From positions 2,418,001 through 2,482,000 of the forward strand of contig NC_042997.1 in assembly GCF_006345805.1 (NCBI RefSeq): DNA of 64,000 nt. Reading direction: 5' to 3'. The notes below the pieces were generated by a model, which was given only the letters and a program-made list of their open reading frames with translations, ran no database searches and was not told where the DNA came from. Positions 25,948-60,068 of this stretch are shown one piece after another. Origin of the DNA: Octopus sinensis (lineage: Eukaryota). Each line of letters begins with the position of its first letter. Position 1 is the first letter of the stretch. Both the position numbers and the translations under genes were made by a program.

Positions 25948-27170
<1,223 letters not shown>

Positions 27171-37205: not shown

Positions 37206-37950
37206 TAAACATAGTAAATAGGGTAATAAAAATAAATTCTTATTACCAGTGACCTAGCACAAAATACGAATTAGTCATTAGACTATGCGTTATTCATATA
37301 TAAATACATTAAAATGGTTCCAAATAAAGAAGCGAGTGATAGATACACAAAATACACACAAATTCTATTCATTTGCTAAAAAGAAGATGAAACTGCAGTA
37401 CAGGATTAGCTGAGATGGTAAACGTTTTTGATTTTCATTCCATTTCATGAATTTATCCCCTTTTTGTGTATCTAGCACTCGCTTCTTTATTTGGAGGCCT
37501 TTTAATCTATTTATATATGAATAACGCATAGTTTAATGACTAATTCGTCTTTTGTGCTAGGTCACTGGTAATAAGAATTTATTTTTATTACCCTATTTAC
37601 TATGTTTAAATATTGCTCGATAAATTTGCACGTAAATTTTTACCGGCATCCTCTCTGTTCGCCGGGTATAATGTGCGTCTGCGCACTGGTTTGAAAAGTT
37701 AGGGTATACAGATCGTTGGATTTGCACGTGCTTCCAACGGTATGTACAGCTCGGATTGCAAAGGCTTCCTGCTGACGATTCTGGCCTTGGCAGATAAATT
37801 CTATTCATTTGCTAAAAAGAAGATGAAACTGCAGTACAGGATTAGCTGAGATGGTAAACGTTTTTGATTTTCATTCCATTTCATGAAATTATCCCCTTTT
37901 TGTGTATCTAGCACTCGCTTCTTTATTTGGAGGCCTTTTAATGTATTTAT
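37206..37950. mobile_element. (TA)n-embedded inverted plus 1.3x tandem element carrying the CTAG/RCTGG motif (family 2)
   Basis: 37206-37352 is the inverse of ~37461-37608; 37361-37515 recurs at 37798-37950 (period ~437). Motif at 37469-37595(+). Confidence 0.8.
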
Positions 37951-38215: not shown

Positions 38216-38266
38216 AGGAAGGAATTTATGTGTAAATATAATATGTGATAATTATTCGGTAGCCAT

Positions 38267-38327
38267 GATAAAACTCCGAGTTTCGGTTGTCGGGTTGAAA
38301 ATCCAGGCCGCCATCTCTTCAGTTATC
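38267..38327 (-). ncRNA. Type I hammerhead ribozyme motif with intact core
   Basis: GAUAA-CUGAAGA-GAUGGCGG...CCGACAACC-GAAAC-UCGGA-GUU|UUAUC: 5-bp stem I, 3-bp helix III, GUU triplet; stem II is imperfect. Confidence 0.8.
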
Positions 38328-38394
38328 TGGCCCTCGGAAAAATGCCCAGCGGAATTCGAATAGGACCTAGTAAAGCTCATTTTTCCGATGGCCG

Positions 38395-38455
38395 GATAAC
38401 TGAAGAGATGGCGACGTGGATTTCCACCCCAACATCTGAAAATCGGAGATTTATG
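38395..38455 (+). ncRNA. Inverted sister copy of the hammerhead motif (helix III mutated)
   Basis: GATAA-CTGAAGA-GATGGCGACGTGGATTTCCACCCCAACATCT-GAAA-ATCGGAGATT-TATG. Confidence 0.7.
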
Positions 38456-38464
38456 ATGATGATG

Positions 38465-44268: not shown

Positions 44269-44310
<42 letters not shown>

Positions 44311-44315
<5 letters not shown>

Positions 44316-45983
44316 TCATATAGGGTGGTAAAAAATTTCGTAGAATTCTTTTGCCACCAGCGGCCTAGTGGGAAAAAATTAAATAGTCATAGACCATTTA
44401 TAAATTCAACAGCAAAATCAAGGAACGGCCATAATAGGCCATTCACCCACTAGAAATAACAGCCAAGGCTTCAACCGCAAAACAACATTAATTCCGCAAA
44501 CCAGGAGAAAATTAAAAAAACATTTACCCTGTAGTTCTTTATACGATGCACCGTTTCATCTCTTGTTTAATGGTAAACTAACCTGGTGGCAAAAGAATTC
44601 TACGAAATTTTTTGCCACCCTATATTGATTAATTATGAATTTTCTGGTTAATTCCGTAATGGAATCGGCGGCTTATATTTGCTGCCGATGAATTTGGCGC
44701 GAGTGCGATGATTTGAAAATTTTAGGTCAGATATTGCCGAGACAGTGATGGAAGTGCCTCGTGTAAATATCTGCTCCGATCTGGCCGTTCTTTACTGATG
44801 AATCTATCGGCCTATGGAAGACTAGCTTGATTTAATTTAATCAGGTTAGTTTACCATTAAACAAGAGATGAAACGGTGCATCGTATAAAGAACTACAGGG
44901 TAAATGTTTTTTTAATTTTCTCCCGGTTTGCGGAATTAATGTTGTTTTGCGGTTGAAGCCTTGGCTGTTATTTCTAGAGGGTAAATGGCCTATTATGGCC
45001 GTTCCTTGATTTTGCTGTTGAATTTATAAATGGTCTATGACTATTTAATTTTTTCCCACTAGGCCGCTGGTGGCAAAAGAATTCTACGAAATTTTTTGTC
45101 ACCCTATATTGATTAATTATGACTTTTCTGGTTAATTCCGTAATGGAATCGGCGGCTTATATTTGCTGCCGATGAATTTGGCGCGAGTGCGATGATTTGA
45201 AAAATTTTAGGTCAGATATTGCCGAGACAGTGATGGAAGTGCATCGTGTAAATATCTGCTCCGATCTGGCCGTTCTTTACTGATGAATCTATCGGCCTAT
45301 GGAAGACTAGCTTGATTTAATTTAATCAGGTTAGTTTACCATTAAACAAGAGATGAAACGGTGCATCGTATAAAGAACTACAGGGTAAATGTTTTTTTAA
45401 TTTTCTCCCGGTTTGCGGAATTAATGTTGTTTTGCGGTTGAAGCCTTGGCTGTTATTTCTAGAGGGTAAATGGCCTATTATGGCCGTTCCTTGATTTTGC
45501 TGTTGAATTTATAAATGGTCTATGACTATTTAATTTTTTCCCACTAGGCCGCTGGTGGCAAAAGAATTCTACGAAATTTTTTGTCACCCTATATTGATTA
45601 ATTATGACTTTTCTGGTTAATTCCGTAATGGAATCGGCGGCTTATATTTGCTGCCGATGAATTTGGCGCGAGTGCGATGATTTGAAAAATTTAGGTCAGA
45701 TATTGCCGAGACAGTGATGGAAGTGCATCGTGTAAATATCTGCTCCGATCTGGCCGTTCTTTACTGATGAATCTATCGGCCTATGGAAGACTAGCTTGAT
45801 TTAATTTAATCAGGTTAGTTTACCATTAAACAAGAGATGAAACGGTGCATCGTATAAAGAACTACAGGGTAAATGTTTTTTTAATTTTCTCCTGGTTTGC
45901 GGAATTAATGTTGTTTTGCGGTTGAAGCCTTGGCTGTTATTTCTAGTGGGTGAATGGCCTATTATGGCCGTTCCTTGATTTTG

Positions 45984-45984
<1 letters not shown>
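44311..45984. mobile_element. (TA)n-embedded young element: 275-bp inverted arm plus 2.9 tandem copies of a ~485-bp unit carrying the CTAG/RCTGG motif (family 1)
   Basis: ctggtggcaaaagaattc at 44583, 45067 and 45552; 44311-44585 is the reverse complement of unit sequence; pure (TA)n lies on both sides. Confidence 0.92.
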
Positions 45985-46055
<71 letters not shown>

Positions 46056-52378: not shown

Positions 52379-52442
52379 TTTATATGTACATATAAATATA
52401 TGTACACACACATACACACACATATATATATATATATATACT

Positions 52443-52486
<44 letters not shown>

Positions 52487-52496
52487 AGTATATATC

Positions 52497-55232
52497 TGTA
52501 TCACTATTCAGCAAGACCAATGACATAATCATTGTTGGTCTTTACAGGCCTCCCCAAGCACCTCTAAAGTGCTTTGAAGAGTGTCTTAGCAAATTTAAGT
52601 CCTTCCGTCGGAAGTACAACTCCAGGAACATACTAGTGATTGGTGATTTTAACCTCCCTCGTGTGAACTGGCCCACAAATACTCTGAAGTTAGGCAAATG
52701 CTCTACATCAGACAGAGCAGCAGCAGAACTGCTCTTTAATCTAATGGATGAATACTTCCTGACTCAGCTAGTGCTCGAAACAACGAGACAGAAGAAAACG
52801 ATCTTGGATCTGGTATTGACCAATCACTCTAGCTTCGTTCACTGTATTTCAGTTGAAAGAACTCTCCTCTGAGACCACGACATGGTACTCTGCAATTTTA
52901 ATTCTCGACATATAAAAACCAAACCAGCCAATCCCACTCCATGGCACTCATTTGACAACATAAACTTCCACAAAGCGGACTGGGGAGCAATCACAAAGGA
53001 TCTGTCTGTCATCGACTGGTCTTTTACTTTCAATTCCACCCATATTGAGACCACATGGCAGCACTTTGAAAACATTGTCACCTATACATGCTCTAAACAC
53101 GCTCCCATAAAATCTACTAAAACAAAGAGAAACCGGCTCCCAAAAAAGAAAAAAACACTCATCAGGCGCATCAAAAGACTCAACACAAAAATCAACCAAT
53201 TAGAATATTCCCACATACAACATCCACATTCAACAACAATGAAAAGGCTAGAGCTGGAAAAACTTCATCTGCAGAACGACATGAAAACCTCCATTGAAAA
53301 TCAAAGAGATGTGGAGAAACAGTGGGTAATCAAAAACAGCAAACAGAACCCAAAATTGTTCTATTCTTATACAAATAAGCATAGAGCCACTGTCTCACCC
53401 ATTGGGCCATTGATTGATGATAACGGCATTCCCCAATACGATGCTAAAGAAATGGTGGAAATACTGCAGAAACAATACTGCTCTGTCTTTAATGTACCCA
53501 CTGATATTGACGTAAGAGAAGCGAACGAAGTTGACTCTCAACATAAAATCTCAGACATAACCTTCACTGCCACTGACATCATAGCAGCAATAAATGCGGT
53601 CAAATACTACTCTGCTGTAGGCCCTGATAGATTCCCTGCTAGTCTCCTGAAGGAATGTAGACACCATCTTGCAGTCCCTCTGACCAACCTCTGGAGAAAT
53701 TCGTTAGACGCAGTTTATATACCGAAACAGTTTCTATCCCAGTCAGTCATCCCGGTTTTCCAACAGGGAAACAGATCCCTCGCACTCAACTATCGCCCAA
53801 TCTCACTCACATCCCACATCATCAAAGTGGTTGAAAGATTGTTAAGATCAAGGATAGCTGACTTCCTGGAGACCCACAAACTCCTAAATGCAAATAAGCA
53901 TGGCTTTCGCTGTGGCAGGGACTGTCTAACACAGCTCTTACACCACATTGAAGATGTACTCAAAGCTTGCGAACAGGTTCGAACTCTAATGTCATATATC
54001 TTGACTTCAGTAAAGCGTTCGACAGGGTAGACCATAATATCCTACTCTCAAAATTGGCAAATGTTGGAATCCGTGGAAAAGTTCTACACTGGATCAAGTA
54101 TTTCCTGGCGAATAGAACACAACATGTTGTAGTTGATGGAGTCCATTCAAGCCCAGCAAAAGTCACCACTGGTGTCCCCCAGGGGACTGTCTTGCGTCCG
54201 CTACTCTTCATAATCTACATAAACGACCTTTCCAGTGTCGTACATTACTGCAAAGTGAAAATATTTGCTGATCACACTGAGAAACAGAAAATCGTCAATG
54301 AAGAACCAGACCGAACTCAACTCCAGTCCGATCTATATGCTGTGAGTCAATGGGCAGACAGAAACAAAATGCAACTGAAAGAGGGAAAATTTGAGCCGAT
54401 GCATTTTGGAAGAATTCCTCACTAAAACAGCCATACTCTCTTCCTTCAGGGGAACCGCTCACAGCCTCTAGCAATATCAGAGACCTGGGTGTAATTGTTG
54501 ACCTGGGTGTAATCAGTTGGAGAGCACACATCAAGAAGGTCGATATAGCTCGTAGGATGAGATCCTGGATCTTAAGAACTTTCCGGTCCAGAGAACAAGG
54601 TGTCATCATACCACTTTTCTCCTCCTTTGTACGGCCACACATCGAATACCGCTGCCCACCGTGGTCTCCCCATACAAGACAAAACATCTCGAGGATTGAA
54701 TCACCACAGAGAGAACTCACTAAGCGAATTGAAAGCATGGCTGCTCTCGATTATTGGGATAGCCTTAAAGCCTTGAAACTCTACTCTCTCCAGCGTTGCC
54801 GTGAGCGATTCATCATTCGTACGATGTGGAGAATATATCGCCAACTTTGCTCAAACGACCTGAACATTAGCTTCAAGGTTCATCCAAGACTGGGACCACG
54901 GGCCATACGTCCCCTGCCCAATTCAAAATCACAGCATACATGTACACTGCAACATAATTTATTTTCCTCAACAGGCCCTGCCTTATTTAACATTGTCCCG
55001 AAAGAGATCAAAGAGGAACAAGATTCCATCAACTTTAAACGGAGTCTGGATAGATTCCTTCAAGGAATACCAGATAAGCCACCCATAATCGGATACAACT
55101 CACCCAACAAAAACTCACTACTTGAATGGACCATATACAAAACTTGACTTAAACGGAATTCAAATAATCCTATCAGGTGGTGCTCTTAAGTTAGACATGG
55201 TCTGGACCAATCATTGGTCGAAACATATCTAA

Positions 55233-58779: not shown

Positions 58780-58809
58780 TTAACAATAGCATTTACCAAC
58801 AAATAGTTA

Positions 58810-59060
58810 CTGCATTTCTATATTTAAGAGAGAAGGAATTATGTACATTATTTCCATTATTTACAATTGACGGATATTTGTCCTCATCTTGTTTGTTGTT
58901 TAAACAACCTTTCGGCTGATATACCATCCAGCATTCATCAGGTGTCTTGGAGAAACTTCGAACCTGGGTTCTCATTTCTAAGATGTTTTTCGATGTTGAT
59001 ATTAGCATTACATTACGAGTTCGATTCCAGACAGTGACCTGAATAATAATAATAATGATA

Positions 59061-59127
<67 letters not shown>

Positions 59128-59292
59128 TAATAATAACACCATCAAAAAATACCTTAGGAATGAGGACCCAGGTTCGAAATTTCCCCTAAGCCTCCCGATG
59201 AAGGTTTGGAAGGTATATCAACCAAAACGTTTTGTTAACAACAAGATGGGGACAAATACCTGTCAACTGTAAATAATGTAAATAATGTAAAT
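58810..59292. mobile_element. Inverted (tail-out) pair of hammerhead-bearing repeats with a tRNA B-box at the centre
   Basis: 58850-58997 is the inverse of 59135-59290. HHRs: GACAC-CUGAUGA-A-UGCUG..CAGCC-GAAA-G-GUU at 58901-58946(-) and a degenerate copy at 59190-59237(+). GAGTTCGATTCC at 59017-59028. Confidence 0.75.
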
Positions 59293-59659: not shown

Positions 59660-60068
59660 ATTTTAATTTAAAATGAGGATGAGAAATTAGATATTAATTT
59701 AATTAACATCGATTTCACACCAGTGGTCTAGCATATAATAAAACTGAAGTTTCAGTAAAATTGTCTTATATACATGTTAGAGGGAAACCACTATGTGGAC
59801 ACCCATATGCTAGAAATAGATCCGCTATGGTCTTACCAATAAGAAATGTTCTCAACAAAAATTTAGCAAAACAACCAAAACGTAATCGAGCAAGACTCGT
59901 GATGGTAATAGTGAAATATGTATGCGAATAATCCATATTTTTATTGCTTTTTCTTTTGTCTTGCTCGATTACGTTTTGGTTGTTTTGCTAAATTTTTGGT
60001 GAGAACATTTCTTAGTGGTGAGACCATAGCAGATCTATTTCTTGCATAAGTATGTCCACATAGTGGTT
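59660..60068. mobile_element. Inverted element carrying the CTAG/RCTGG motif (family 4)
   Basis: 59786-59896 is the inverse of 59958-60068; full motif at 59675-59818(-); left end at (TA)n. Confidence 0.78.

Follow-up and report, generated by a model that had tools for sequence, protein, structure and literature searches.

A covarying RNA fold downstream of the hammerhead in octopus retrozymes, a candidate start-site signal for a Penelope-type reverse transcriptase

Non-LTR retrozymes are described as non-coding tandem units of low GC content that carry one type I hammerhead each, occur as dispersed copies and are proposed to be mobilised by Penelope-like elements, PLEs (PMC7229834; bioRxiv 10.64898/2026.07.22.740005). 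PLEs are recognised by incomplete tandem arrays, by copies in inverted orientation and by a tail on one side only (PMC8557442). Hammerheads of animals and of PLEs typically have a short, palindromic helix III and act in dimeric form (PMC4209133). For Poseidon PAc, the purified protein nicks both strands of AT-rich DNA, two internal RNA start sites match the genomic ends, and the RNA region around these start sites is required; the protein is a predicted dimer and hammerhead cleavage is not needed (PMC11167929). That PLEs mobilise animal retrozymes is so far a hypothesis.

The window, a 64,000-nucleotide stretch of the Octopus sinensis genome, contains four insertions that share a structured RNA motif and represent four repeat families. 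Their features are given below, where P0 and P1 are helices of the predicted fold, sites 1 and 2 are the two places at which insertions end, and R1 is a covariance model built from relatives of the four families.

44310..45985: family 1 retrozyme insertion, an inverted left arm and 2.9 tandem 485-nt units, flanked by (TA)n runs
44318..44485, (-) strand: predicted structured domain of the family 1 left arm (model R1, 122 bits)
44535..44557, (-) strand: hammerhead 3' half (GAAA, stem III, GUA and stem I strand) on the 5'-truncated family 1 left arm
44583..44585: family 1 inversion junction, a 3-nt overlap between both arms
44788..44892, (+) strand: type I hammerhead of family 1 unit 1, predicted cut after 44885
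44942..45109, (+) strand: predicted structured domain of family 1 unit 1, with P0 at 44948-44953/45064-45068, P1 at 44973-44981/45055-45063 and the GG..CC hairpin at 45069-45103
45273..45377, (+) strand: type I hammerhead of family 1 unit 2, predicted cut after 45370
45427..45594, (+) strand: predicted structured domain of family 1 unit 2 (model R1)
45757..45861, (+) strand: type I hammerhead of family 1 unit 3, predicted cut after 45854
45911..45985, (+) strand: 5' part of the domain in the family 1 right arm, which ends at site 2, in the multiloop, 44 nt ahead of the core
25948..26413: family 2 two-armed insertion, with the domain at 25965-26159 (-) and a decayed hammerhead at 26243-26317 (+)
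37206..37950: family 3 insertion with a 436-nt unit and domains at 37440-37598 (+) and 37216-37372 (-)
37767-37841, (+) strand: complete family 3 hammerhead, predicted cut after 37836
59660..60068: family 4 two-armed insertion, with the domain at 59672-59846 (-)
59913-59926, (+) strand: decayed family 4 hammerhead, 3' half alone, complete in other genomic copies

The family 1 insertion is the inverted array that an earlier note on this DNA had reported, with a 485-bp tandem of 2.9 units at 44583-45985 and an inverted left arm at 44318-44585; the CTG microhomology is present at the inversion junction, and the motif strand points outward on both arms, as claimed. The left-arm domain comprises P0, a small hairpin, P1, the multiloop and the GG..CC hairpin, and the arm terminates at site 1, ~13 nt beyond CCCT. 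Units 1 and 2 have private changes that are absent from unit 3 and the left arm (44973-44990, 45458-45475, 45942-45959), a pattern better explained by a local duplication at a later time, or by copying from a multimer, than by one circle being copied again and again.

Comparison with metazoan non-LTR retrozymes shows the same non-coding tandem units, one type I hammerhead each, low GC content and dispersed copies, with units that are longer here than the 330-390 nt quoted for axolotl and mussel retrozymes. Further differences are the long stem II region of the hammerheads and a second predicted fold common to the families, which these sources, as far as accessible, do not describe. The likeness to the PLE pLTR and tail extends to partial tandems, an adjacent inverted 5'-truncated copy and (TA)n targets (PMC8557442, PMC4209133), as well as to a hammerhead with short palindromic helix III and one arm that is longer at the 3' end. 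The elements in the window differ in that they have no ORF and that their ends lie ~100 nt apart, compared with 30-40 nt for the described tails. As in Poseidon PAc, there are two internal sites downstream of the hammerhead and an AT-rich target; as far as descriptions can be compared, a single AC-rich stem-loop within the ORF contains both sites in PAc, whereas the sites here bracket part of a 165-nt non-coding multi-helix fold. Taken as a whole, the elements are very probably PLE-mobilised hammerhead retrozymes. Structured cis elements near the point at which a reverse transcriptase (RT) starts include the 3' stem-loop recognition signals of LINEs and SINEs and the TERT-binding junction of telomerase RNA, and Penelope-type RTs are the closest relatives of telomerase. 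The likeness of the present fold to these elements is one of role only, and no Rfam model matched.

The core of the motif, CTAG-RYC-RCT-GG, is present seven times in the window, all inside the four elements named earlier and 0 times elsewhere, and the sole blastn match among the four elements is one 13-nt stretch of this core. The 2.72-Gb genome was searched with a 3' core pattern made up of the core, 18-45 nt and CCCT. Exact matches numbered 9,919 (9,161 with T as the next base and 758 with another base) and carry many different hairpin sequences; the reversed-pattern control gave 27 (13 and 14). All four families are dispersed and multi-copy, with 1,045-2,727 first-look candidates each, and for family 1, with 1,733 candidates, the full-unit matches listed share 92-99% identity. 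Within the motif as first described, the pairs formed by the two strands X and X' and the GG..CC hairpins are present, but TATA(T/A)A does not hold as a conserved word, its position being just an AT-rich stretch that contains the second end site. X and X' are complementary, but some of the pairs quoted are private to the window copies, with CGAG/CTCG as the majority in family 2 and CATA/TATG in family 4.

The description of the four elements as unrelated was not sustained. Families 1, 2 and 3 are joined outside the motif via intermediate families, and family 4 is a separate group; among 20 representatives compared outside the motif, no connection joins the others to family 4 or to a third group, and shuffled controls gave 0 matches. 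Judged by their sequences, the families are one old superfamily and not four unrelated elements. Unit lengths across the families are 434-534 nt, which agrees with the retrozyme-sized monomers predicted earlier, and the units contain no conserved ORF; a short ORF after site 1 was dismissed, as the codon-like conservation seen between two families fails across families.

All four families have a type I hammerhead upstream of the fold and on the same strand, with the predicted cut ~155-216 nt before the core. The motif therefore does not take the place of a hammerhead, as the earlier note had proposed, and the processing of tandem transcripts that had been assigned to it is accounted for by one hammerhead per unit. 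Three complete hammerheads of family 1 lie 485 nt apart inside 44311-45984. Their stem I has 7 bp and shows covariation from one subfamily to another; CUGAUGA is followed by a branched stem II of 68 nt, by GAAA and by a stem III that is nearly a palindrome, and the predicted cut is at GUA. For family 4, the hammerhead is present in the family majority sequence. A type I hammerhead is defined by CUGANGA and GAAA cores, an NUH site and three stems, with stem I open. By descriptor search, 15 of the 26 representatives gave a complete motif with compensatory stem I, a single core variant being present in some, and the motif in the remaining 11 is truncated, decayed or missed. The stem II region of the 15 complete motifs is 33-81 nt long, a length that explains why the hammerheads were overlooked before, and the Rfam hammerhead models give no score on these long-stem-II hammerheads. 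As tandem non-coding units of this size with a type I hammerhead, the elements fall within the sequence definition of non-LTR retrozymes. A pseudoknot between the stem II loop and the GGTAAA word was considered and dropped, as the partner pairs locally in stem II.

Long stem II regions are common in the genome. Other repeats have a type I hammerhead with a stem II region of 50-58 nt and are without the CTAG fold (L161:6290-6420 (-), L174:6480-6590 (-) and L175:1880-1960 (+) among the fetched loci). Inspection by eye of the window also showed hammerhead-like cores in two other two-armed repeats, at 38250-38460 and at 58800-59290, the second of which lies in (AAT)n.

The predicted fold spans ~165 nt and consists of P0 (GYGG with YCRC), a small side hairpin, P1 (YUAG-X with X'-CUAG), which encloses a multiloop with between two and four hairpins, and then the GG..CC hairpin; P0 and the small hairpin beside it are additions to the motif first described. 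One real copy per family or subfamily among the fetched loci (n = 26) was aligned by sequence alone. On single-sequence folding, the common layout is found in most of the 26 representatives, with a pairing probability of the CUAG of at least 0.75 in 21 and at most 0.2 in the other 5. P1 is paired in 98.0% of cells, and 5 of its 8 pairs are changed on both sides. The last (GG..CC) hairpin is 79.9% paired and P0 is 76.7% paired as aligned, the one double change in P0 being probably a single event. The covariation score of the whole structure is 0.329, compared with 0.179 for shuffled (0/500) and at most 0.159 for slid controls. Unaided, RNAalifold predicts P1 and no other helix. Under a tree-simulated null, E<0.05 is reached by 5 of 21 proposed pairs, four of them in P1 and one in P0, a count that is optimistic because the proposed pairs were picked from the same data; the best of all 11,935 column pairs is a P1 pair with E=0.075. 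The 5' strands of the helices lie outside the search pattern; the 3' core itself served as that pattern, so part of its invariance follows from the search. P0, P1 (as TTAG with CTAA), the last hairpin, the hammerhead and both end sites are all present in a family that was detected independently of the pattern.

In 15 of the 26 representatives the outermost pair of P1 is a U-G wobble, and a C(UUCG)G loop occurs in one group. Both features favor an RNA on the hammerhead strand, which is also the strand of the earlier note, and together with the pairing of P1 they bear out its covarying structure on the outward-pointing strand. Single-sequence z-scores fail to separate the strands, and the opposite strand often folds about equally well, as would be expected if the motif acted as DNA, either as a terminal hairpin of the Helitron/Helentron type or as a promoter. 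The CTAG beside a hairpin is also reminiscent of Helitron ends. Such an element ends at CTRR adjoining a hairpin. The insertions here end either 27-47 nt ahead of the core CTAG or 51-83 nt beyond it, and a Helitron/Helentron terminus was rejected on this count. A DNA function is very improbable given that the motif is internal to the unit, with ends at two surrounding sites and not at CTAG, that the wobbles and the UUCG loop point to RNA, and that variable 5' truncation, inversion and hammerheads are features of retroelements.

No Rfam match better than E=4.3 was found over 44583-45560, in line with the earlier judgement by eye that the motif fits none of the hammerhead, hairpin, twister, pistol or HDV cores, and the search over the whole window gave only simple-repeat miRNA noise among the 150 of 199 rows listed. 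The missing match and the predicted multi-helix architecture with a three-way junction, kept across three groups with unalignable flanks, are what could be expected of a second catalytic RNA of a new class, which would either cleave itself or ligate the hammerhead-cut monomer into a circle. With a hammerhead already present in every family, processing does not call for a new ribozyme. Where a column is conserved in 23 or more of the 26 representatives, its purines lie in predicted helices, except for one A, only partly paired, at the foot of the last hairpin; unpaired columns of this kind are mostly U, and no conserved unpaired purine core was seen. Furthermore, the arms continue across the entire domain over several units, and RT starts explain the insertion ends. 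A second catalytic RNA is accordingly very unlikely, and on present evidence the fold is not a new ribozyme class, contrary to the candidate status that it had been given. If the reading were true, thousands of animal retroelement copies would carry a new class beside the hammerhead. An HDV-like fold, which has a similar order of P1 and GG hairpin, was rejected on account of the 80-108-nt multiloop, which does not fit, and the lack of an Rfam match.

The word ACCCU(A/C) at the base of the last hairpin (45100-45106 for example) occurs in every family, even in those that were detected independently of the pattern, and resembles the telomerase template core. Telomere priming at this word was considered and discarded, as a join to telomeric repeats was seen in 1 match among ~9,900.

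The pyrimidine tracts that precede both CTAG sites, one of them with a CTAAT-like word upstream, and the GGTAAA just after the hammerhead in one group raise the question of whether a spliceosomal intron has been retained here with the motif as its 3' end, its branch point, pyrimidine tract and YAG being folded against splicing. PLE 5' regions contain introns, and in D. virilis the end of the Penelope intron overlaps the hammerhead (PMC4209133). In two families, however, TTAG is paired with CTAA, so that the AG is lost and the helix kept; another family has CTGG at the first site, and the donor-like word is absent from two groups. The genomic copies of family 1 include 0 that are spliced from the donor to the second site, and no splice-type joints of families 1 and 3 were found in contigs of six putative RNA runs, though contigs drop variants. 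A retained intron is therefore very unlikely.

The ends of the insertions were determined in 109 loci of the four families, which gave 87 distinct sense-strand 3' ends running into (TA)n, with ends lacking TA runs excluded. Site 1 lies 51-83 nt beyond the core C, where the last hairpin has just closed, and accounts for 49 of the 87 ends; site 2, in the multiloop 27-47 nt before the core C and ~95-110 nt upstream of site 1, accounts for 33, and the other 5 lie outside both. For families 2-4, ends near the motif are favored by the motif-containing queries with which their loci were fetched. For family 1, which was fetched with the whole unit, 27 of 29 ends lie in the two sites; its site 2 is not among the 22 TAT/ATA positions of the unit, and other U-rich stretches of the unit are unused as ends. 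Among two-armed insertions with both ends resolved (n = 20), site 1 is combined with site 2 in 15 and with some other place in 5, and one site is never used twice; this use of one site per arm suggests coordinated placement. The 5' ends are spread, and of 45 a single one comes as close as 5 nt to the hammerhead cut, indicating that copying passes through the cut site, as it would on a circle or an uncut multimer. The anatomy is that of non-autonomous PLE-type elements, namely a partial tandem with an inverted 5'-truncated arm, two 3' end sites and a microsatellite target, in agreement with the Penelope-type geometry recognized in the earlier note.

Because the insertions end at two fixed points around the fold, the fold likely directs the start of reverse transcription, and 82 of 87 ends at the two sites lend weight to the retroposition signal that had been offered as a fallback reading. 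We put at about 0.6 the probability that the predicted fold is a docking and start-site signal for a borrowed Penelope-type RT and sets the two internal start sites. On this model, the hammerhead, probably as a dimer, would cut the tandem transcripts, and the monomers could potentially be ligated into circles. A GIY-YIG/RT protein would bind the fold, nick both strands of (TA)n DNA and prime one arm per site; copying would pass the hammerhead cut site and extend over one or several units, and microhomology would join the two cDNAs.

The main rival assigns the fold to the life of the RNA, in circle stability, host-protein binding, localisation or hammerhead control, with RT starts falling passively in unpaired U-rich stretches. 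Accessibility alone may set the end sites, given that both are U-rich and in predicted single-stranded regions, and the autonomous PLE ends seen here are without the fold. In addition, it has been argued that self-pairing cannot be what blocks the hammerhead in circles and that some other factor must do so (PMC7229834). The regular assignment of one arm to each site and the disuse of the other U-rich stretches argue against a passive choice, which makes this rival somewhat unlikely.

A partner that would supply the start-site signal reading with its enzyme was sought among GIY-YIG loci, where 150 of 5,029 candidates were scored and 50 loci examined; these were mostly of the Neptune type, with a CxxxxCxxC motif and a C-terminal nuclease. 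The search brought up no autonomous element that carries the fold: across 51 GIY-YIG/Naiad loci, model R1 matched only an independent retrozyme, and no PLE ORF adjoins 60 pattern-hit loci (3-5 kb flanks) save for one chimera. The association of the motif with PLE RT/GIY-YIG ORFs, envisaged earlier, was thus not found in either sample, that chimera excepted. In the dominant Neptune-type family the hammerhead is short, the two 3' ends lie ~30 nt apart and the fold is absent, so the fold is not generally required for two-site priming. The same family also has a TATA box and an intron donor, and many intact-looking Neptune-type frames of 775-781 aa are present, e.g. at C6:82.40 Mb, C8:18.82 Mb and C1:207.48 Mb. 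In the chimera (L207:2320-5953, G000:C1:29427719-29431352), a retrozyme site-1 end is joined to a 5'-truncated Neptune copy without a TA run, as could result from a template jump or, equally, from insertion at the edge of a TA run. A retrozyme-Neptune chimera as a family was rejected, the junction occurring once among 40 scored matches. Two links to Naiad were also rejected: identity with Naiad, since a canonical type I hammerhead is present and R1 misses the one Naiad remnant fetched, and a link through CTAG..CTAG-ACC-GCT at the 5' end of the published Naiad consensus, of which R1 does not match the single genomic remnant. From the anatomy of the insertions we infer that the mobilising enzyme is of the Penelope type.

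In the accessible open full-text literature on PLEs, retrozymes and octopus hammerheads, no description of the fold was found. With a covarying fold that can be mutated and both start sites mapped in four families, template recognition and two-site priming become directly testable. Model R1 and the long-stem-II hammerhead provide a means to find repeats that the Rfam hammerhead models do not score here.

The window also contains broken LINE-type endonuclease/RT frames at 52396-55147 and 591-1650, which are unrelated to the retrozymes. Contigs of three putative RNA runs (X1, X3 and X10) span the head-to-tail unit boundary, which is expected from circles, tandem transcripts or DNA alike. In contigs of runs X1, X3 and X13, also putative RNA, runs of A-to-G differences from the family sequence were seen by eye on the hammerhead strand (window 44720-45190 and 37366-37790), and these look like ADAR hyper-editing of inverted-repeat RNA. 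Finally, a TGCGC-N-TGCGC...GATTTGAAAA block ~100 nt past site 1 (window ~44675-44720 and relatives) is kept across families; it resembles an NRF1/Ewg binding site and may be part of an internal promoter.
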